DNA of 64,000 nt from Escherichia coli (GTDB lineage: Bacteria > Pseudomonadota > Gammaproteobacteria > Enterobacterales > Enterobacteriaceae), in the NCBI RefSeq assembly GCF_048403405.1, contig NZ_CP183129.1; one strand, written 5' to 3'. The position numbers were made by a program, and so were the translations under genes. The notes under the pieces are model-generated. The model did no database searches, was not told the origin of the DNA, and worked only from the letters and a program-made list of their open reading frames with translations. Below are positions 5,248-64,000 of the stretch, one piece after another. The stretch's first letter is position 1, and every line of letters begins with the position of its first letter.

Positions 5248-5557
5248 AAAATAAATATATTCTGAAAAAATATGCCGACTCTTGCATGAGAGTGGGCATA
5301 TTGCCATGCTGACAGGAGACTCACATAAGGAAAGGCAGAATTTCCAGACGTCGTTGTATATTTTCATTTGCTTTAATAAATTTCATTTTTAGTAAATTCA
5401 GCATTATGTTATTAGCGATGAGCAAGACCAATCATTAACCAAGTTCTCTTCAGAATGTAATGAAAAATGTGAAGTGCATTTCTTTTTTAAAATTTTTTTA
5501 GCCTATTATTTCTTATCAAATTAACATTGCCCTTAATTATAAGAAAGGAGAATATAA

Positions 5558-6406
5558 ATGAACAACATATTAGGCTCATCAATTAATATGCCCTGTACAC
5601 TTTTCGAAACTATTACTTTATTCGATGATTTTTCTGCTGATGATATGCAATATGGGGATATGGAAGAACAAGATTTTCTCTCACTCGGCTTAAGCGACAT
5701 CTCTGCAAAAGTTGATCCTTACCGCCTCATTAAATACCATTTTCCTGGGCCGAATTCTACTTATGGTGCTTTTAGTGTTCCAACTTCTGGAACAAAAATA
5801 TCACAAAGTGAATGTATTGATATTTTATTTGCAGAAATGAAAGATCTGGCAAAAATGTTTTCCTTTTTTGGACAATACAAAACACTCATCCAGGATCTGA
5901 TTGATCATTTTAGATATGGAAATGGCAACAGTTTCCATAGCCAGGAATTGAACTTATCTTTTCATGAACGAATAAAAAAATATGATTATAATAGCCCAAT
6001 ACGTGTAATCAAAGAATGTATCGAAAATGATATTTCTTCAACACCTACGATAGGATACCGGCCTCTTCTCCTACAAAAGATTAAGATCGAATTACTTTCA
6101 TCAAGACTAAATAAATTCAATGATTTTAAAGATAATTTTAATGGCCTGGGAATCAGCATTCATGATATCTCAGCTCAAAAAATATCTCTTTTAAGTTTTC
6201 AAAAATACGCTATAGGATGGAGTGCAACAATTCATTTTGTAGCACAGGACCACTTCGGTCTTGATGTAACTGATATCAAAAACAAGACTTACAGCAAATA
6301 TAGATTTTTTCGCATATGGTTCTTTTTACAACGGCATAAAGACTTTGCTTTCAAACCTTTTTTCACCAATTTTAACACTATCGAAAGAATCGAAAATTAT
6401 CTATGA
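5558..6406 (+). CDS. Hypothetical protein, 282 aa, AT-rich accessory gene (islet gene 1); no recognisable family
   Basis: Intact ORF with AAGGAG SD 8 nt upstream of ATG; very low GC relative to flanks; no TM or signal peptide evident; stop overlaps start of next ORF. Confidence 0.7.
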   Translation: MNNILGSSINMPCTLFETITLFDDFSADDMQYGDMEEQDFLSLGLSDISAKVDPYRLIKYHFPGPNSTYGAFSVPTSGTKISQSECIDILFAEMKDLAKMFSFFGQYKTLIQDLIDHFRYGNGNSFHSQELNLSFHERIKKYDYNSPIRVIKECIENDISSTPTIGYRPLLLQKIKIELLSSRLNKFNDFKDNFNGLGISIHDISAQKISLLSFQKYAIGWSATIHFVAQDHFGLDVTDIKNKTYSKYRFFRIWFFLQRHKDFAFKPFFTNFNTIERIENYL

Positions 6407-6894
6407 AAAACAAACTCCAGAAAATTATATTATGTTTATTTCTTCTATGCTGCATCTATAATTTATGGACATTGCGTCCTGTACAGATTTTGTATACATA
6501 CTCTGATGCTGGCAATTCAGTCTTTCTGGTCGTTGATCATCTGCCATGGACTGACAGCGATAAAATAAATTGGTATCTGAAGCATCAGAATGAAATTAAA
6601 AATCAACATCCCCTACCAGAAGGTAGTTGGCATACCTGGTATGTCATTGATATCGGTAATGGCTTCACTGACTATAAAAAATATATCGAAGGGCCGTATG
6701 AAGATCTCTACTGTTTCCCGACAATTAAGAGCAATGATAATTGCATCGTGAAAAATTACTTAATGGTTATTAATGAATACCCTTATCGTAACACTCATAT
6801 TGGTATTAACGATTTTACTGAGTATCAATTAACACAAGAAAATAAAATAGAGCGAGTTTTCAATCCGCATGACTTTAAAAAAGACAATTTTTAG
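6403..6894 (+). CDS. Hypothetical protein, 163 aa, N-terminal hydrophobic anchor or signal (islet gene 2)
   Basis: ATG overlaps upstream stop (ATGA at 6403-6406); N-terminus MKNKLQKIILCLFLLCCIYNLW is hydrophobic; AT-rich; followed by hairpin 6900-6930. Confidence 0.7.
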   Translation: MKNKLQKIILCLFLLCCIYNLWTLRPVQILYTYSDAGNSVFLVVDHLPWTDSDKINWYLKHQNEIKNQHPLPEGSWHTWYVIDIGNGFTDYKKYIEGPYEDLYCFPTIKSNDNCIVKNYLMVINEYPYRNTHIGINDFTEYQLTQENKIERVFNPHDFKKDNF

Positions 6895-6899
6895 AAATA

Positions 6900-6930
6900 A
6901 GCCGGATAAAAAAATAGCTTTATCCGGCAC
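6900..6930. terminator. Bidirectional intrinsic terminator hairpin between islet gene 2 and corA
   Basis: GCCGGATAAAAAAATAGCTTTATCCGGC inverted repeat between convergent ORFs. Confidence 0.55.
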
Positions 6931-6935
6931 TCATA

Positions 6936-7886
6936 TTACAACCAGTTCTTCCGCTTAAAATACAGATACGGTGCCAGGCCCGCGAGGATCATAAAGATAA
7001 TCGCGCCAGGGTAGCCGAAACTCCACTTCAGTTCCGGCATAAACTCAAAGTTCATCCCGTAGCTGGAAGCAACCAGCGTTGGCGGCAGGAACACGACGGA
7101 TACCACCGAGAAGATTTTGATGATGCGGTTCTGCTCGATGTTGATAAAGCCCATCGCCGCCTGCATCAGGAAGTTCACCTTCTGGAACAGGGATTCGTTA
7201 TGCGGCAGCAGGGATTCGATATCTCGCAGGATTTCACGCGCCTGCTCCAGTTGACCACCCGGTAAACGCGCCTTGCGTACCAGGAAGTTGAGCGCACGCT
7301 GGGTATCCATCAGACACAGGCGAACTTTCCAGCCGATATCTTCCAGTTCCGCCAGCGTGGAGAGCGCCTCGTCGTACTCATCGCCCTGATGCCCTTCCAT
7401 AATTACCCGGCTCAACTGCTCCAGGTCGCTGTAGATATTTTCAATTTCATCTGCCAACTGTTCGATTTTGGTTTCGAACAGATCCAGCAGCAGCTCGTAG
7501 GCATTACCGTCTACCATCGACTGGCTACGGGCACGCATACGATATAGACGAAAAGCGGGCAGTTCACGCTCACGCAGAGTAAACAGACGACCATCACGGA
7601 TGGTAAATGCCACAGTGGAGTTACCGGCGTGATCTTCCGCATCTTCAAAGAAGAAGAAGGAGTGAATATGCAGGCCGTCATCGTCTTCAAAGAAACGTGC
7701 CGATGCTTCGATGTCTTCCAGTTCCGGGCGGGTTGCCAGGCTCTGGCCAAGTTCAGATTGTACGCGCAGTCGCTCGTCGTCGTCCGGTTCGACAAGATCA
7801 ATCCATACTGCATTTACAAGGGGTTGTGACTCTTCGACTTCCAGCCGGGTCAGTCGGTTATTTTCCAGTTGAAATGCGCTCAGCAT
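6936..7886 (-). CDS. corA: Magnesium/cobalt transport protein CorA
   Basis: ORF 6936..7901; start at [10 protein letters not shown] (316 aa); C-terminal [10 protein letters not shown] motif present. Confidence 0.93.
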
Positions 7887-8010
7887 GACCGGGACTCCCA
7901 ATGCTTAAAATATCGGACAGTTCGGTGGGCACACAGAAACAAATTGGGTTTCAGACCATTAAACAGCCTGACTCAGCGCGACGGGAAAAATTGAGGTCGC
8001 TGACAACCGC

Positions 8011-8043
8011 TAAGGCTATCAGCAAAAAGGGATAGCCTTAGGA
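8011..8043. promoter_or_regulatory. Stable hairpin in corA upstream/leader region
   Basis: Inverted repeat CTAAGGCTATC..(loop)..GATAGCCTTAG inside the 354-bp corA-yigE divergent region. Confidence 0.35.
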
Positions 8044-8255
8044 GTTGATCCTGGATGACAGGATAGTGAGCCAGTATCTACTGGGTGTGTCCAAGGCGAA
8101 TGTCCTCTTAGAGTGATCGTGCGCGCATGTTACGCCAGCAAAATTTTGCCGTCAACACGCAACAGAACACCACAGAACAATAGTTGAACTTCGCGCTTTT
8201 TGGTACTCGTCAAGGTCGCTAACAGGATAAAAAAATCCCACATCCAGGACCTATA

Positions 8256-9020
8256 ATGGCGCATCGGCTACTCATTGGTAAAGGAATGATCACCTTGAAT
8301 CTCAAACGGATTTTTCTCACCCTCACCTTACTTCCCTTGTTTGCTGTTGCCGCTGATGATTGCGCACTCTCAGATCCGGCGCTGACCGTACAGGCGTATA
8401 TCGTTAATCCTCAAACAGAGCGGGTGAAAATGTACTGGCAAAAAGCCAATGGCGAAGCGTGGGGAACGTTACATGCTCTGCTGGCGGATATTAATAGTCA
8501 GGGTCAGGTGCAGATGGCGATGAACGGCGGCATCTATGATGAAAGCTATGCGCCGCTCGGTTTGTACATCGAAAACGGTCAGCAGAAGGTGGCGTTAAAT
8601 CTCGCTTCAGGTGAAGGGAATTTCTTTATTCGTCCTGGCGGCGTGTTTTATGTCGCGGGAGATAAAGTCGGCATCGTTCGTCTGGATGCCTTTAAAACCA
8701 GTAAAGAGATTCAGTTTGCGGTGCAGTCAGGGCCAATGTTGATGGAAAACGGCGTAATTAATCCGCGTATTCATCCCAACGTCGCCTCACGTAAAATTCG
8801 TAACGGTGTTGGGATTAATAAACAAGGGAACGCCGTGTTTTTGTTGAGCCAGCAGGCGACAAATTTTTATGATTTTGCCTGTTATGCCAAAGCGAAACTG
8901 AACGTTGAGCAGCTGCTTTATCTTGATGGCACAATTTCACATATGTATATGAAAGGCTGGGCAATCCCGTGGCAACGCTATCCTTTTGTTACCATGATTT
9001 CCGTCGAGCGGAAAGGTTAA
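8256..9020 (+). CDS. yigE: DUF2233-family (phosphodiester glycosidase-like) secreted protein YigE
   Basis: 254-aa ORF; hydrophobic signal-like N-terminus (LTLTLLPLFAVAADD); matches YigE as recalled. Confidence 0.8.
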   Translation: MAHRLLIGKGMITLNLKRIFLTLTLLPLFAVAADDCALSDPALTVQAYIVNPQTERVKMYWQKANGEAWGTLHALLADINSQGQVQMAMNGGIYDESYAPLGLYIENGQQKVALNLASGEGNFFIRPGGVFYVAGDKVGIVRLDAFKTSKEIQFAVQSGPMLMENGVINPRIHPNVASRKIRNGVGINKQGNAVFLLSQQATNFYDFACYAKAKLNVEQLLYLDGTISHMYMKGWAIPWQRYPFVTMISVERKG

Positions 9021-9102
9021 GCATTGTACACTCGAGGAGGCCAGACAAACTGGGACTGGCTACACAGTTGGAAAATCATCAGATAAATGAAGGGAAACAA
9101 AA

Positions 9103-10005
9103 ATGAAAAAAACGCTCGCAACGTTATTTTTATTAACGTGTCTGGGATCATCATCCGCCTATGCAGATAACGCTTTGATTTTACAAACTGATTTTAGCCT
9201 GAAAGATGGTGCCGTCTCGGCGATGAAAGGGGTCGCATTCGGCGTTGACCATAATCTTAAAATCTTTGATTTAACACACGAAATTCCACCGTATAACATC
9301 TGGGAAGGCGCTTATCGCCTGTATCAGACTGCCAGTTACTGGCCGCAAGGTTCGGTGTTTGTTAGCGTGGTCGATCCGGGCGTAGGCACTGACCGTAAAT
9401 CGGTGGTGCTAAAAACCAAAAACGGTCAGTACTTCGTTTCACCAGATAACGGTACGCTCACTTTGGTGGCACAAACTCTGGGTATTGATAGCGTCCGGGA
9501 AATCGACGAAAAAGCTAACCGCCTGAAAGGTTCTGAAAAGTCATATACCTTCCACGGTCGTGACGTGTATGCCTACACCGGTGCGCGTCTGGCTTCCGGG
9601 GCGATTACGTTCGAACAGGTGGGGCCAGAGCTTCCTGCAAAAGTTGTCGAACTTTCTTATCAGAAAGCAAAAGCAACAAAAGGTGAAGTGAAGGGCAATA
9701 TCCCGATTCTCGATATTCAGTACGGCAACGTCTGGAGCAATATCAGCGACGAGTTGCTGAATCAGGCAGGAATCAAACTCAACGACACGTTGTGTGTGAC
9801 CATTTCCGAAGGTTCCCAGCAAAAATACGCAGGGAAAATGCCGTATGTCGCAAGCTTCGGCGATGTGCCGGAAGGCCAGCCGATGGTGTATCTGAACAGC
9901 TTATTGAATGTTTCCGTGGCGCTGAATATGGATAATTTTGCGCAGAAACATCAGGTTGCGTCTGGTGCTGACTGGAATATTGATGTGAAGAAGTGCGCTA
10001 AGTAA
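9103..10005 (+). CDS. SAM hydroxide adenosyltransferase (DUF62/fluorinase-chlorinase family)-like protein with N-terminal signal peptide
   Basis: 300-aa ORF; signal peptide MKKTLATLFLLTCLGSSSAYA; family-like motifs LQTDFSLKDGAVSAMKGV, VVDPGVGTDR, FVSPDNGTLT, TFHGRDVYAYTGARLASG. Confidence 0.75.
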   Translation: MKKTLATLFLLTCLGSSSAYADNALILQTDFSLKDGAVSAMKGVAFGVDHNLKIFDLTHEIPPYNIWEGAYRLYQTASYWPQGSVFVSVVDPGVGTDRKSVVLKTKNGQYFVSPDNGTLTLVAQTLGIDSVREIDEKANRLKGSEKSYTFHGRDVYAYTGARLASGAITFEQVGPELPAKVVELSYQKAKATKGEVKGNIPILDIQYGNVWSNISDELLNQAGIKLNDTLCVTISEGSQQKYAGKMPYVASFGDVPEGQPMVYLNSLLNVSVALNMDNFAQKHQVASGADWNIDVKKCAK

Positions 10006-10014
10006 GGTGCTGAT

Positions 10015-10046
10015 GCGGAATGCGGTGTGGCGCACCGCATTCCGCA
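10015..10046. terminator. Hairpin between convergent DUF62-like gene and uvrD
   Basis: GGAATGCGGTGTGGCGCACCGCATTCC palindrome. Confidence 0.5.
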
Positions 10047-10049
10047 ACG

Positions 10050-12212
10050 TCACACCGTCTCCAACCGGGCGTAAGCCGCCACCAGCCATTTAATACCCTG
10101 GCCCTGGAACGCCACCTGCAAACGGCTATGCTCACCGCTGCCTTCCATATTGACGATGGTGCCTTCACCAAACTTAGCGTGGCGTACGCGCTGGCCGAGC
10201 TTGTAGCCGCTGTCGTTCTCGACCATCGGCGTACCCATCCGTTGATGGCTGACCGGGCGGCTTACCGTGGCGCGCAGGCGCACCTCTTCCACACACTCTT
10301 CCGGCAGCTCGCCGATAAAGCGCGATGGGCGATGGTAAACCTCTTTGCCATACAGACGGCGGGTTTCCGCGTAGGTCAGCGTCAGTTTCTGCATCGCGCG
10401 GGTTACGCCAACGTAGGCCAGACGGCGTTCTTCTTCCAGACGTCCGCCTTCATCCAGCGACATCTGGCTTGGGAACATGCCCTCTTCCATACCGACGATA
10501 AACACCTGCGGGAACTCCAGCCCTTTCGCCGAGTGTAGCGTCATCAACTGCACCGCATCCTGCCAGGTATCCGCCTGCCCCTCGCCCGCTTCCAGTGCCG
10601 CATGGGAGAGGAACGCCTGCAGCGGCATTAAATCTTCGTCTTCTTCGTTGTAGCTGAACTGGCGCGTCGCCGTTACCAGTTCCTCTAAGTTTTCGATACG
10701 CGTCTGGCCTTTTTCGCCTTTCTCCTGCTCGTACATGGTGCGCAGGCCGGAGTCTTTAATTACCCGGTCAGTCTGTACATGCAGCGGCATATCGGCAGTT
10801 TCCTGCGCTAAGGCGTCGATCAGTTCCATAAACCGCTGTAAGGCACTGGCAGCACGTCCGGCGAGGGCTTTTTCCTGCAACAGTTCACGACATGCCTGCC
10901 AGAGTGTTAACTGGCGATCGCGCGATGTCTGACGTACCACGTCCAGCGTCCGGTCACCAATACCCCGCGTTGGTGTATTCACCACGCGCTCAAAGGCCGC
11001 GTCGTCATTACGGTTGGCAATCAGGCGCAGATACGAGAGCGCATCTTTGATTTCCTGGCGTTCGAAGAATCGCATCCCGCCGTAAATACGGTACGGCATA
11101 CTTGCCTGTAACAGTGCTTCTTCCAGCACACGCGACTGGGCGTTGCTGCGGTAGAGAATGGCGCACTCGGCAAGCGCCCCGCCGTTGTCCTGCCAGGTTT
11201 TGATACGGTTAACCACAAAACGCGCTTCATCGAGTTCGTTAAAAGCGCAATAGAGGGAAATAGGCTCACCATCCGCGCCATCGGTCCACAGTTTTTTACC
11301 CAAACGCCCGTTGTTGTTTTCAATCAGGGCGTTCGCGGCGCTCAGAATATTGCTGGTAGAGCGGTAGTTCTGCTCCAGACGGATAGTTTCAGCACCGGGG
11401 AAATCATTGAGGAAACGCTGAATATTCTCCACCTGCGCTCCACGCCAGCCGTAGATTGACTGATCGTCATCGCCAACGATCATCACTTTGCCGGTATCGC
11501 CCGCCAGCAGGCGGATCCACGCATACTGAATGTTGTTGGTATCCTGGAATTCGTCCACCAGGATATTGGTAAACCGTTCGCGATAGTGCTGAAGGATATG
11601 CGGCTTGTTAAGCCACAACTCGTGAGCACGTAGCAGCAGCTCGGCGAAGTCCACCAGGCCCGCGCGGTCACACGCTTCCTGATACGCCTGATACACCTTC
11701 TGCCAGGTCTGCTCCACCGGATTACCGTAGCTTTGAATATGATGTGGACGCAGGCCTTCATCTTTCTGGCTGTTGATGTACCACATTGCCTGGCGCGGCG
11801 GCCACTGCTTCTCGTCGAGGTTCATCGCCTTGATTAGGCGTTTGAGCAGGCGTAGCTGGTCCTCGCTGTCGAGGATCTGAAAATCCTGCGGCAGATTGGC
11901 GTCCATATGGTGCGCACGCAGCAGACGGTGCGCCAGCCCGTGGAAGGTGCCGACCCACATGCCGCCCTGGCTGGTGCCCATCAGCTGCCCGATACGATGA
12001 CGCATCTCCGCCGCCGCTTTGTTGGTAAACGTTACCGCCATAATCGAATATGGCGAGCAGTTTTCCACGCTCATCAGCCAGGCGATACGGTGCACCAGTA
12101 CGCGCGTCTTACCACTGCCCGCGCCCGCCAGCACCAGAAGGTTGCTGCGTGGCGCGGCCACCGCTTCGCGCTGTTTGTCATTAAGGCTGTCGAGCAGGTA
12201 AGAAACGTCCAT
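10050..12212 (-). CDS. uvrD: DNA helicase II UvrD
   Basis: ORF 10050..12401; true start at internal MDVSYLLDSLNDKQREAVAAP (720 aa); Walker A AGAGSGKT. Confidence 0.95.
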   Translation of the reverse strand: MDVSYLLDSLNDKQREAVAAPRSNLLVLAGAGSGKTRVLVHRIAWLMSVENCSPYSIMAVTFTNKAAAEMRHRIGQLMGTSQGGMWVGTFHGLAHRLLRAHHMDANLPQDFQILDSEDQLRLLKRLIKAMNLDEKQWPPRQAMWYINSQKDEGLRPHHIQSYGNPVEQTWQKVYQAYQEACDRAGLVDFAELLLRAHELWLNKPHILQHYRERFTNILVDEFQDTNNIQYAWIRLLAGDTGKVMIVGDDDQSIYGWRGAQVENIQRFLNDFPGAETIRLEQNYRSTSNILSAANALIENNNGRLGKKLWTDGADGEPISLYCAFNELDEARFVVNRIKTWQDNGGALAECAILYRSNAQSRVLEEALLQASMPYRIYGGMRFFERQEIKDALSYLRLIANRNDDAAFERVVNTPTRGIGDRTLDVVRQTSRDRQLTLWQACRELLQEKALAGRAASALQRFMELIDALAQETADMPLHVQTDRVIKDSGLRTMYEQEKGEKGQTRIENLEELVTATRQFSYNEEDEDLMPLQAFLSHAALEAGEGQADTWQDAVQLMTLHSAKGLEFPQVFIVGMEEGMFPSQMSLDEGGRLEEERRLAYVGVTRAMQKLTLTYAETRRLYGKEVYHRPSRFIGELPEECVEEVRLRATVSRPVSHQRMGTPMVENDSGYKLGQRVRHAKFGEGTIVNMEGSGEHSRLQVAFQGQGIKWLVAAYARLETV

Positions 12213-23535: not shown

Positions 23536-23607
23536 CCGGAGGCAAGCACCTCCGGGACCTTTCTGATACATAAAAAAACGCCTGCTCTTATTACGGAGCA
23601 GGCGTTA
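23536..23607 (+). terminator. Tandem hairpins downstream of hemY (hem operon terminator)
   Basis: CCGGAGGCAAGCACCTCCGG and AAACGCCTGCTC..GAGCAGGCGTT inverted repeats. Confidence 0.5.
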
Positions 23608-24202
23608 AAACAGGTCTGTATGACAACAAGTGGGTGCTTCACTCAACGTTGTGTCCATGGTGTCTGATGAGGCATAAGCGACATCTGTCAGTGGACGATA
23701 AGCACCGTAAACGGCTCTGCGTCATTCCGGAGTTTATGAGGCACTAAGGCGAACATAAGAGATGGAATGAGCATCTACTCGTTTATTATGCCACAGAGAA
23801 CCGGGAAATAACATCCCTTAACACTTTTTATGAGATAATTCTGTAATCCTCTTTGCTTCCTGAGTAATAACTTCCTGAGTGAATATTTCTCCTGCGCACG
23901 ATTCTACACATATATATAATGAATAATAAAAGTCATTCAATTAATAACATATATATTAATTGCCGTTAAAACTAAAAACAGCATCAATAATCAACGCGAT
24001 ATAACATCACCGCCTTACATATCACCTGCGCCAGAGGTAGGATTGAAAACGCTCTCCTGATTTTCCAATTCATTATCTGGATAAATAAATAATTTATTTT
24101 CATCACTATTATTTATGCAATCATCCTGTCAGGGAGAGGGATCTCAATTATCAATGCTTAATTACGTCAACATTTTGACGACATGAAACCGGAGCATTTT
24201 GC

Positions 24203-27341: not shown

Positions 27342-27418
27342 TGGTCGGCGAGAGAGGATTCGAACCTCCGACCCACTGGTCCCAAACCAGTTGCGCTACC
27401 AAGCTGCGCTACTCGCCG
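27342..27418 (-). tRNA. proM: tRNA-Pro
   Basis: Revcomp matches E. coli tRNA-Pro (CGGCGAGTAGCGCAGCTTGGTAGCGCAACTGGTTTGGGACC...CCA). Confidence 0.95.
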
Positions 27419-27460
27419 AAATACTGCTTTTTGAATTTTTAGTTCAATTCTTTAAAGTCG

Positions 27461-27547
27461 TGGTGCGAGGGGGGGACTTGAACCCCCACGTCCGTAAGGA
27501 CACTAACACCTGAAGCTAGCGCGTCTACCAATTCCGCCACCTTCGCA
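27461..27547 (-). tRNA. leuT: tRNA-Leu (CAG)
   Basis: Revcomp matches tRNA-Leu (GCGAAGGTGGCGGAATTGGTAGACGCGCTAGCTTCAGGTG...); ends approximate to 1 nt. Confidence 0.93.
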
Positions 27548-27566
27548 TTGTCACAACTTCTAATAA

Positions 27567-27643
27567 TGGGGTGGCTAATGGGATTCGAACCCACGACAAC
27601 TGGAATCACAATCCAGGGCTCTACCAACTGAGCTATAGCCACC
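27567..27643 (-). tRNA. hisR: tRNA-His
   Basis: Revcomp matches tRNA-His (GGTGGCTATAGCTCAGTTGGTAGAGCCCTGGATTGTGATTCC...). Confidence 0.95.
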
Positions 27644-27700
27644 ACTACAAATCTTGTTACGCGGTATTACTACCACCGCAGCTCAAGCGCCGGGACTAAA

Positions 27701-27777
<77 letters not shown>

Positions 27778-42418: not shown

Positions 42419-42448
42419 ACAAAACGCCACGTAAACACGTGGCGTTTT
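42419..42448 (-). terminator. rho intrinsic terminator
   Basis: AAAACGCCACGTAAACACGTGGCGTTTTT palindrome just downstream of rho stop. Confidence 0.7.
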
Positions 42449-44047: not shown

Positions 44048-44377
44048 TTACGCCAGATTAGCGTCGAGGAACTCTTTCAACTGACCTTTAGACAGTGCGC
44101 CCACTTTGGTTGCCGCCACTTCACCGTTTTTGAACAGTAGCAGAGTCGGGATACCGCGGATGCCATATTTCGGCGCAGTGCCAGGGTTTTGATCGATGTT
44201 CAGTTTTGCAACGGTCAGTTTGCCCTGATATTCGTCAGCGATTTCATCCAGAATCGGGGCGATCATTTTGCACGGACCGCACCACTCTGCCCAGAAATCG
44301 ACGAGGATCGCCCCGTCCGCTTTGAGTACATCCGTGTCAAAACTGTCGTCAGTCAGGTGAATAATTTTATCGCTCAT
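44048..44377 (-). CDS. trxA: Thioredoxin 1
   Basis: ORF 44048..44482; start at [13 protein letters not shown] (109 aa); WCGPC active site. Confidence 0.97.
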
Positions 44378-44507
44378 ATTTAACTCCACAGGAATAAGCC
44401 TGGCGTGTTGGTTTCGTTGTTGGTGTAACATTAACCAACTAAAGGTTGACTTTATTTCACCGGATACGCTTTCGTAAAGCAATAGTAAGCTGATATTCTA
44501 CCACACT

Positions 44508-62951: not shown

Positions 62952-63636
62952 GAGGTTTTTCAAATGCGCCTATAAGGCTCTCTTACCAGCCGCGCCCTAA
63001 CAGGCGCACACGATCTGACATTTGCATCCAACTTCGTTACTTACGGCCCGTAAACGGGCTGCCCGGATAGGGAATCGATAACTGCTCTCCCATTTTATCC
63101 TCTTCAAGCTGGTGCTTTATGTAATCCTGTATCTTCGCCGTGTTCTTACCCACCGTATCGACGTAGTACCCTCTGCACCAGAACTCCCTGTTCCTGTATT
63201 TGAATTTCAAATCACCAAACTGCTCGTAAAGCATCAGACTGCTTTTCCCTTTCAGATATCCCATAAAGCCGGATACGCTCATTTTGGGCGGGATCTCCAC
63301 AAGCATATGGATATGATCTGCACAGCATTCAGCTTCCAGAATCCGTACACTTTTCCACTCACACAGCTTTCTCAAAATACTGCCTATTGCTCTACGCTTC
63401 TCTCTGTAGAACACCTGTCTTCGGTATTTTGGCGCAAAAACTATGTGATATTTACAGTTCCATCGGGTGTGCGCTAAGCTCTTTTCGTTCCCCATTGGGA
63501 CCCCCTTTTGATTTCTTGTTTGACACTTGCAGTTGCCAGACCGCAAGGTGTTTTAACAAATCAAAAGGGGTTTTAATAACTGGCTTAAAGCTGAAAGCTT
63601 TCCGGAACCCCCAGCCTAGCTGGGGGTTTTCTGTGC
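62952..63636 (-). mobile_element. IS200 insertion sequence (IS200/IS605 family); boundaries approximate to about 30 bp
   Basis: Contains Y1/HuH transposase gene; upstream (minus strand) shows the characteristic IS200 left-end structures: terminator-like hairpin AACCCCCAGCCTAGCTGGGGGTT (63607-63629) and an RBS-sequestering stem (CCCCTTTTGA / TCAAAAGGGG) ahead of the tnpA start. Confidence 0.8.
63037..63495 (-). CDS. tnpA: IS200 transposase TnpA (HuH Y1 single-strand transposase)
   Basis: ORF 63037..63546; start at MGNEKSLAHTRWNCKYHIVFAPKYRR (152 aa); HuH motif HIHMLV; near-identical to Salmonella IS200 TnpA as recalled. Confidence 0.92.
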   Translation of the reverse strand: MGNEKSLAHTRWNCKYHIVFAPKYRRQVFYREKRRAIGSILRKLCEWKSVRILEAECCADHIHMLVEIPPKMSVSGFMGYLKGKSSLMLYEQFGDLKFKYRNREFWCRGYYVDTVGKNTAKIQDYIKHQLEEDKMGEQLSIPYPGSPFTGRK

Positions 63637-63672: not shown

Positions 63673-63748
63673 TGGCAGGGGCGGAGAGACTCGAACTCCC
63701 AACACCCGGTTTTGGAGACCGGTGCTCTACCAATTGAACTACGCCCCT
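63673..63748 (-). tRNA. trpT: tRNA-Trp
   Basis: Revcomp matches AGGGGCGTAGTTCAATTGGTAGAGCACCGGTCTCCAAAACCGGGTGTTGGGAGTTCGAGTCTCTCCGCCCCTGCCA. Confidence 0.95.
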
Positions 63749-63756
63749 AATTAGGG

Positions 63757-63833
63757 TGGCGGAACGGACGGGACTCGAACCCGCGACCCCCTGCGTGACA
63801 GGCAGGTATTCTAACCGACTGAACTACCGCTCC
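63757..63833 (-). tRNA. aspT: tRNA-Asp
   Basis: Revcomp matches GGAGCGGTAGTTCAGTCGGTTAGAATACCTGCCTGTCACGCAGGGGGTCGCGGGTTCGAGTCCCGTCCGTTCCGCCA. Confidence 0.95.
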
Positions 63834-63885
63834 ACCGAATTCTTTTACAACCACCGGTTTTATGACCGGCTTACTGCTAAATTTG

Positions 63886-64000
63886 ATGCCTGGCAGTTCC
63901 CTACTCTCGCATGGGGAGACCCCACACTACCATCGGCGCTACGGCGTTTCACTTCTGAGTTCGGCATGGGGTCAGGTGGGACCACCGCGCTAAGGCCGCC
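63886..64000 (-). rRNA. rrfC: 5S ribosomal RNA, 3' portion (5' end beyond window edge)
   Basis: Revcomp matches E. coli 5S rRNA from its 3' end (ATGCCTGGCAGTTCCCTACTCTCGCATGGGGAGACCCCACACTACCATCGGCGCTACGGCG...). Confidence 0.93.

Follow-up and report, generated by a model that had tools for sequence, protein, structure and literature searches.

The inverted repeat between corA and yigE in the 64,000-nt stretch of Escherichia coli DNA that we analyzed (contig NZ_CP183129.1, hereafter the window) is very probably stem-loop C of the corA 5′ leader mRNA, the ON (anti-termination) helix in an RNA switch made up of four segments. This stem-loop is already known from Salmonella enterica (Kriner & Groisman 2015, 2016/17) and from E. 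coli K-12 (Vezina Bedard et al. 2024). In both organisms the corA leader has been described as a Rho-dependent attenuator that alternates between stems A+B (OFF) and stems C+D (ON), with a further stem E and the upstream open reading frame (uORF) corL (PMC5314796, PMC11552253, PMC12360218). As stem C, the hairpin would be a riboregulatory helix in an attenuator that ties the synthesis of a Mg2+ channel to the translation of an 18-codon uORF, and the set of 80 Enterobacterales species compared here shows how tightly the layout with the uORF stop codon inside one arm of the helix is kept. Our assignment is based on two papers, the Salmonella follow-up of 2016 and the E. coli study of 2024, and on the oligonucleotide table that accompanies the latter. 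The preliminary description of this region recognized the hairpin itself, but it overlooked corL with its stop codon in the 5′ arm, the competing helices A and B and the Rho-dependent mechanism, all of which are published.

The regulated gene, corA, occupies positions 6936..7886 on the minus strand (316 codons plus stop; ATG at 7886, stop at 6936), and its divergent neighbour yigE starts at 8256 on the plus strand. The true intergenic region is therefore 7887-8255, that is, 369 bp. It had earlier been given as 354 bp (7902-8255) because the boundary at 7902 followed a mechanical TTG-extended ORF and not the real corA start. Together with the corA ATG (372 aligned nt), the region is 100% identical to that of E. 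coli K-12 MG1655, and 5433 E. coli records match it at 99% identity or more. The only differences between this strain and K-12 are in the accessory genes around the corA-corL-yigE core. Among the E. coli records, the intergenic region gave a median of one match per genome, and we ruled out a dispersed repeat element on the basis of this median of one place per genome.

The repeat consists of two 11-nt arms, CTAAGGCTATC at 8010-8020 and GATAGCCTTAG at 8031-8041, which are perfectly complementary (11/11) and enclose a 10-nt loop (8021-8030). Its existence had been noted correctly, whereas its position, given as 8011-8043, should read 8010-8041, and the arms are perfect and not ‘near-perfect’. 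The repeat continues outward to 17-nt arms (8004-8020 and 8031-8047) that are 88% complementary; as RNA, this extended stem C has 5 + 11 bp with one mismatch (16 bp). In dinucleotide-preserving shuffles of the 369-nt intergenic region, a perfect stem of at least 11 bp with a loop of 3-20 nt appeared in 3 of 2000 cases (0.15%). The 44-nt hairpin has a folding energy of about −20.4 to −20.5 kcal/mol on either strand, with a z-score of −6.0 against shuffled sequences.

Using a consensus scan, we found a sigma-70-like corA promoter on the minus strand at 8127..8155, with the −35 hexamer TTGACG at 8155-8150, a 17-nt spacer and the −10 hexamer TAACAT at 8132-8127. Among the 80 Enterobacterales, hardly any variation is seen in the −10 hexamer and its flanks. 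This promoter predicts a +1 near 8120, and with A 8120 as +1 (Salmonella-equivalent numbering, used for all leader nucleotides below) the corA 5′ leader mRNA spans 7887..8120 on the minus strand, a length of about 234 nt. The numbering of the K-12 paper equals the present leader numbering minus 2, with the leader of the K-12 constructs beginning at G 8118, as read from oligos oFM4, corA41-71txR and corA68-99txR. Given this 2-nt offset between the Salmonella-equivalent and K-12 numbering, the corA transcription start is fixed only to within 2 nt. The hairpin corresponds to leader nt 80-111 on the corA sense strand. It is thus part of the 5′ UTR, some 80 nt downstream of where corA transcription starts, which bears out the leader structure that had been named among the options for this hairpin.

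With +1 at 8120, all Salmonella mutations quoted in PMC5314796 match the stated base. M1 is located at G84G85C86 (8037-8035) in the 5′ arm of stem C and M2 at G105C106C107 (8016-8014) in the 3′ arm. M1* at G24C25C26 (8097-8095) pairs with G84G85C86, and M7 at T97 and C99 (8024 and 8022) pairs with M5 at G121 and G123 (8000 and 7998). In Salmonella, M1 breaks stems A and C, M2 breaks stems B and C, and M1 and M2 together restore stem C; the C, B and D pairings were demonstrated there by compensatory mutants (PMC5314796). In the window, GGC at 8037-8035 is opposite GCC at 8016-8014, and the two triplets are paired at the centre of the repeat. Given that M1 and M2 face each other in the middle of the hairpin, we therefore equate the hairpin with stem-loop C.

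The K-12 mutants could be placed on the window through their oligonucleotides, which bear out this identification independently. The ON mutant (corAON1F, corAON1F-reamp) swaps CAACUC (8047-8042) with GGUUG (8008-8004), by which the extension of stem C is kept and stem B is destroyed; the authors anticipated that it would make stem C more stable (PMC11552253). The OFF mutant (corAOFF1F) rewrites the 3′ arm and stem B, creating a new self-complementary stem B that is unable to pair with the 5′ arm. In K-12, corA-lacZ expression was ‘severely decreased’ by the OFF mutant, and expression from the ON mutant was not raised as the simple model predicts (PMC11552253). Rho dependence, the effects of the corL start codon and the ON and OFF mutants were all shown in K-12, whose sequence is identical to that of the window (PMC11552253).

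All elements of the switch can be located on the minus strand of the window. The 5′ arm of stem C, CUAAGGCUAUC (8031..8041, nt 80-90), holds the corL stop codon and alternatively serves as the 3′ arm of stem A. The loop, CCUUUUUGCU (8021..8030), is pyrimidine-rich and part of the published rut region upstream of stem B, and the 3′ arm, GAUAGCCUUAG (8010..8020, nt 101-111), is alternatively part of the 5′ arm of stem B. The extension of stem C is formed by CAACU (8043..8047, nt 74-78), which makes 5 bp with GGUUG (8004..8008, nt 113-117), and the latter strand is common to the 3′ arm of stem B. Stem-loop B (7997..8025, nt 96-124), the OFF-state alternative to stem C, has 12 bp (nt 96-107 with 113-124; UUGCUGAUAGCC / GGUUGUCAGCGA) and the loop UUAGC, and its folding energy is −16.7 to −17.4 kcal/mol. 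The 5′ arm of stem A, GCCUUGG (8091..8097, nt 24-30), covers the corL start codon and pairs with CUAAGGC at nt 80-86 (8041-8035) in a constrained fold. Stem-loop D (7978..8000, nt 121-143) is formed by GCGAC and GUCGC (nt 121-125 with 139-143) around a pyrimidine-rich loop, and is present in the minimum free energy (MFE) structure together with stem C. Stem-loop E (7952..7970, nt 151-169), which we mapped from PMC5314796, is formed by CAGGCU and GGUCUG (nt 151-156 with 164-169); in Salmonella, stem E spans nt 152-172 (PMC5314796), so that the E. coli version is two nt shorter. For stem D we also considered the register 119-123 / 143-147, given that E. coli also has C at 143 and 145. This register was rejected by covariation (GCAGC/GCUGC and GCGAU/AUCGC) and by the 2-nt length difference from Salmonella, and the conserved register is 121-125 / 139-143.

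The uORF corL (8038..8094, minus strand) has a UUG start, 18 codons (MDTPSRYWLTILSSRINS) and a UAA stop at 8040-8038, and is annotated at this position in RefSeq as ysgD, ‘YsgD/CorL family protein’. Its UAA forms positions 2-4 of the 5′ arm of the hairpin in the corA sense. Translation of corL has been documented (10.1101/511675, PMC12350097). The UUG start is found in all 80 Enterobacterales loci, the stop lies at this same position inside the 5′ arm of the hairpin in 79 of the 80, and the N-terminus of CorL is kept across the loci as MD(T/A)PS(R/K/T)(Y/C)WL. We also considered alternative frames crossing the hairpin as candidates for ‘CDS177’ (PMC12350097), starting at AUC (nt 4 or nt 65) or at AUA/AUG (nt 44). 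These frames are open in many species and truncated to 1-12 codons in many others, and we did not include them in the mechanism.

Folding of the predicted leader from +1 at 8120, one of the checks suggested with the preliminary description, gave an MFE structure that contains stem C and stem D. The whole corA leader has an MFE of −76.4 kcal/mol (z = −4.15), and both its unconstrained MFE structure and that of nt 1-150 contain C and D. Stem C is mutually exclusive with stem B, with which it has a common 3′ arm, and with stem A, with which it has a common 5′ arm; it co-occurs with stem D. For nt 1-150, the C+D structure was calculated at −46.5 kcal/mol and the A+B structure at −42.7 kcal/mol, so that forcing stem B costs 3.8 kcal/mol. 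When nt 66-95 were blocked, as a proxy for a ribosome at the corL stop codon, the constrained fold turned to stem B, and when nt 15-50 were blocked, as a proxy for a ribosome early in corL, it contained C and D. Along the growing transcript, the MFE structure contained C at 111-118 nt, changed to A+B at 125-130 nt and returned to C+D at 145 nt and longer. The calculated folds thus reproduce the published switch logic.

Conservation of the palindrome had likewise been suggested as a check, and we examined it in 80 loci from species-representative genomes, obtained by a scan anchored on the CorA protein. The 260 nt upstream of corA were aligned, giving 77 distinct sequences from genera that include Escherichia, Citrobacter, Enterobacter, Klebsiella, Serratia, Yersinia, Pectobacterium, Dickeya, Erwinia, Pantoea, Edwardsiella and Hafnia. 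The pairing of stem C is kept throughout this set and compensatory substitutions are present. Of all sequence-by-pair cells of stem C, 96.7% are paired, and at least nine of the 11 core pairs are kept in every one of the 77 distinct sequences. Both sides have changed in four pairs, with C-G replaced by U-A in the extension and U-A by C-G at two positions of the core. The second pair of the stem (U81-A110) is broken in 23 of the 77. Most stem C positions are invariant, which is neutral on pairing and may partly reflect the overlap with stem A, stem B and corL. The other helices gave comparable evidence: stem D is paired in 100% of cells, with compensatory changes at three of its five pairs (for example, GCAGC/GCUGC in Yersinia aldovae and GCGAU/AUCGC in Lonsdalea), stem B is paired in 93.8% of cells, and per position stem A is paired in 95-100% and stem E in 83-100%, the latter with A-U/G-U/C-G substitutions. 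In a shuffle control, the observed values were reached in none of 500 shuffles on four of five measures and in one of 500 on the fifth, and a control with slid registers gave 12-48% paired. Serratia sp. Ag1 (L072) initially seemed to be a leaderless outlier; it has the leader, and in addition an insertion of about 80 nt before corA.

The loops of the two ON-state helices are conserved in composition. The stem C loop occurs in 39 variants with a mean of 80% pyrimidine and 12% G, compared with 57% pyrimidine in the whole leader, and the stem D loop is 81% pyrimidine and G-poor. The rut site has been described as pyrimidine-rich stretches flanking stem B (PMC11552253), and the pyrimidine-rich, G-poor loops of C and D fit this description.

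The same alignment bears on the possibility that the palindrome is a DNA operator, at which a dimeric transcription factor would control the divergent corA and yigE promoters; a protein-binding palindrome had also been among the earlier suggestions. A perfect inverted repeat of 11 bp between divergent genes is what might be expected of such a site, and 92.8% of the core cells are Watson-Crick symmetric across species. However, the variation among the 77 distinct sequences loses DNA symmetry and keeps RNA pairing: much of it consists of G-U wobbles, with U-A changed to U-G in 23 sequences and a U-G in the extension in 71, and together with the compensatory changes it preserves pairing in the corA sense-strand RNA. 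Pairing of stem C reaches 96.7% on the sense strand compared with 89.0% on the antisense strand and 88.7% under strict complementarity, and the difference between sense and antisense is larger for stem B (93.8% versus 68.0%). The better pairing of the corA sense strand points to an RNA of the minus strand and not to a DNA site. In addition, the repeat covers neither promoter, being about 80-111 nt downstream of that of corA and about 215 nt upstream of the yigE ATG, and a 10-nt spacer that is variable in sequence yet pyrimidine-rich is atypical of operators. In K-12, the regulation of corA is promoter-independent and needs only the transcribed 5′ region (PMC11552253). We therefore regard a DNA operator as highly improbable, and favor stem C of the leader mRNA.

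It has also been suggested that the hairpin terminates read-through. In this case it would be an intrinsic terminator or barrier against transcription from upstream (yigE antisense), or would mark the end of a short leader transcript. The strength of the hairpin on both strands is in line with this idea, and the consensus scan flagged terminator-like sites nearby on the minus strand. However, the flagged sites are stem B and a smaller helix, and stem C was not called. No U-run follows stem C, the next bases being GCGGUUGUCAGCG (minus strand) and GAGUUGAUCCUGG (plus strand), and on neither strand does stem C combine a G+C-rich stem with an immediate U-run as expected of an intrinsic terminator. 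The base of the stem is A/U-rich, and the 10-nt loop is long for a terminator. Moreover, the published termination of corA takes place about 100 nt downstream of stem C and is stimulated by Rho and NusG (PMC5314796, PMC11552253). The termination bases reported for K-12, U211 and G216-U220 (PMC11552253), map approximately to 7899..7910 on the minus strand, uncertain by 1-2 nt, and no single +1 matches all of them. An intrinsic terminator at the repeat is thus highly improbable, and we favor the anti-termination helix C.

The mechanism that these results best support is the published one. The expression of corA in K-12 is inverse to intracellular Mg2+ (PMC11552253), and the formation of stem C blocks Rho loading and termination in the leader (PMC5314796, PMC11552253). 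If corL is poorly translated, or if the ribosome stalls early, nt 80-90 would be free to pair with nt 101-111 and to form stem C, which would exclude stem B and permit stem D. The C/U-rich Rho utilisation (rut) stretches would then be sequestered in the C and D hairpins, RNA polymerase would pause less at the corA start, and transcription would proceed into corA. If corL is efficiently translated, the footprint of a ribosome at its stop codon would be expected to cover the 5′ arm. The 3′ arm would then form stem B, rut would be exposed, and Rho with NusG would terminate transcription inside the leader, some 20 nt ahead of the corA start codon. Each arm of stem C has an alternative partner, the 5′ arm upstream in the corL start region (stem A) and the 3′ arm downstream (stem B). 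Mg2+ might enter this switch either through the translation of corL or by acting directly on the RNA.

A further role may be considered for the same duplex. RNase III reportedly controls the decay of corA mRNA via sites in the 5′ UTR (Lim et al. 2012, as cited elsewhere). The extended stem C, or the long-range helices around it, might therefore also be an RNase III cleavage site that sets the half-life of corA mRNA. No other local duplex in the leader is as long as stem C (16 bp with one mismatch), but these 16 interrupted bp fall short of the minimum of about 22 bp quoted by the same laboratory, and the leader MFE structure has longer composite helices, joining nt 3-50 with nt 150-233, that are equally good candidates. 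We consider this additional function of the anti-termination helix unlikely.

As for known systems, the closest is the published corA stem-loop C itself, from which the window shows no substantive difference: the G84-86 / G105-107 pairs, the competitors A and B, the partner D, corL and the Rho-dependent output are the same. We also searched the region with Rfam models. On the hairpin itself only noise was obtained; a mir-76 match (20.9 bits against a gathering score of 75) was discarded as a generic hairpin match, and the enteric corA leader is covered by no Rfam family. One sub-threshold match was recorded for the leader, on the minus strand at 7996-8135 from the −10 region to stem B, namely RF02899 (AaHKsRNA54, Aggregatibacter sRNA 54), with 17.4 bits against a gathering score of 37. 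The two have in common GCG-(T/C)AACAT-GCGC, the SD AAGAGGACA and UUGGACA. The E. coli corA leader is thus probably a distant homologue of RF02899, although by its score it is not a member of the family.

In a metagenome scan we found seven loci with the RF02899 consensus pattern. Four of these were scanned with the model and scored 135 bits in three cases and 83 bits in the remaining one, above the gathering score of 37. Six of the loci have downstream sequence, and in each of them a corA homologue, 72% identical to E. coli CorA, starts about 315 nt downstream on the same strand. Loci of this type carry the same TTGACG and TAACAT hexamers as the E. coli corA promoter. Their uORF has a UUG start and 13 codons (MDSHSRYRIEFSL, MDSHSRY...), its UAA falls within the 5′ arm of a hairpin of 10 bp whose loop is pyrimidine-rich, and the 3′ arm of this hairpin alternatively forms a 12-bp, B-like hairpin downstream. 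Differences from E. coli are the length of the uORF (13 versus 18 codons), the sequences of the helices, and the fact that RF02899 is catalogued as a stand-alone sRNA and not as a cis-regulatory leader. Given the uORF stop codon in a hairpin arm and the B-like alternative in these loci, the C/B topology appears to be conserved beyond Enterobacterales. From these sequence comparisons we lean towards the view that the corA/corL switch is older and more widespread than the enteric bacteria, and that an equivalent leader upstream of corA in Pasteurellaceae-type genomes, with a common SD, UUG-GAC start and MDxxSRY peptide, has been filed as RF02899. RF02899 would then probably be the corA leader or its attenuated product and not a free-standing sRNA, the 118-nt ‘sRNA’ representing either the 5′ portion of the corA leader or a product of its premature termination, and it probably needs to be re-annotated as such. 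We found no statement of a link between RF02899 and the corA leader in the searchable literature.

The corA leader works like the mgtA leader with its uORF mgtL. In both, a Mg2+ transporter gene is preceded by a long leader with a short uORF in stem A and mutually exclusive A+B and C structures, and attenuation is Rho-dependent in Salmonella. However, it is not a member of the Mg_sensor family: the Mg_sensor (RF01056) covariance model gave no match at E ≤ 10 in 7700-8400 or 7880-8160, and by this search the two leaders have no detectable homology in sequence or structure. In addition, mgtL is rich in proline and acidic residues, whereas corL has one proline, and holding the rut site takes a second helix (D) in corA, unlike in mgtA. 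The mgtA promoter is under PhoPQ control, whereas that of corA is unregulated (PMC11552253).

The corA leader also resembles the trp and his attenuators and the tnaC and speFL uORF-controlled Rho terminators, in all of which the position of a ribosome on the leader peptide selects between overlapping helices, and the upstream anti-terminator arm is masked once a ribosome reaches the stop codon. To our knowledge, no ligand-induced arrest occurs at the corL stop codon, unlike in tnaC and speFL. The output of the trp and his leaders is an intrinsic terminator, whereas that of the corA leader is the exposure of rut to Rho.

In E. coli, the corA leader matched the Rfam family RF02899 (AaHKsRNA54, Aggregatibacter sRNA 54) at 7996-8135 on the minus strand, and this match was weak (17.4 bits). 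Four of the metagenomic loci recovered by a pattern scan for the RF02899 consensus were scanned with the family, which scored 135 bits in all but one of them; that one gave 83 bits. Where RF02899 reaches full score in these Pasteurellaceae-type contigs (L083-L089), corA homologues lie directly downstream of it; at locus L088, for example, RF02899 lies at L088:383-500 and corA starts at L088:709. The RF02899 leader of these contigs also contains a uORF, MDSHSRYRIEFSL, that resembles corL (ysgD), as well as two alternative hairpins similar to stem-loop C and its alternative helix B. RF02899 is probably a corA leader wrongly catalogued as an sRNA. The RF02899 model opens with a 5-bp hairpin corresponding to a small palindrome, GCG-UAACAU-GCGC (8121-8135, minus strand), which encloses the corA -10 hexamer TAACAT and is near-invariant among the Enterobacterales. 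Either transcription in Aggregatibacter begins at a point further upstream, or promoter DNA was included within the sRNA boundary.

Besides corL, reading frames at 8077-7973, 8117-8019 and 8056-7973 on the minus strand pass through hairpin C. It has been reported from PIRT-seq that an AUC-initiated 'CDS177' overlaps ysgD, with ribosome density continuing past its stop (PMC12350097). Furthermore, in 32 of the 80 Enterobacterales, an A-to-G substitution at leader nt 46 (counted from +1 at 8120) gives an AUG at nt 44 in the +2 frame. Conservation of the hairpin-crossing frames as coding sequence is nevertheless doubtful, because they are shortened to 1-12 codons in many species.

Serratia sp. Ag1 (L072:850-1203) was considered as a case lacking the leader, and this was rejected: the promoter, corL and stems C, B and D (D being the helix that forms with C) are all present. 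The leader seemed absent in a fixed-distance comparison because approximately 80 extra nucleotides separate it from the corA ATG.

Elsewhere in the window, a perfect 14-bp inverted repeat, TGCGGAATGCGGTG...CACCGCATTCCGCA, at 10014-10046 separates the convergent ends of a SAM-hydrolase-family gene and uvrD, and is probably a bidirectional terminator. Further perfect stems of at least 11 bp occur at 23577-23606, 42421-42448, 50564-50590 and 56545-56572, the first of which sits at the 3' end of the match to GlmZ (23572-23778). Like GlmZ, the other known RNAs are on the minus strand: the trxA 5' UTR thermometer (44348-44447), STnc490 (63505-63628), a four-tRNA cluster (27345-27777), and two tRNAs with the end of a 5S rRNA at the window edge (63676-64000). 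The family RF02744 (Soft rot Enterobacteriaceae Rev 39 5'UTR) also has a match on this strand, at 59455-59744. Although its name points to plant pathogens, RF02744 matches this E. coli window at 158.8 bits (Rfam), and therefore its distribution is evidently broader than the name implies.

Accessory genes absent from K-12 flank the corA-corL-yigE core on both sides (5558-6894 and 9103-10005), with a SAM hydrolase/halogenase-family gene between yigE and uvrD. Among 5426 complete E. coli genomes, coverage of 5400-10100 reaches 80% in only 1483. Downstream of corA, the window has DUF3289 and DUF943 family genes, whereas K-12 has yigF and yigG there.
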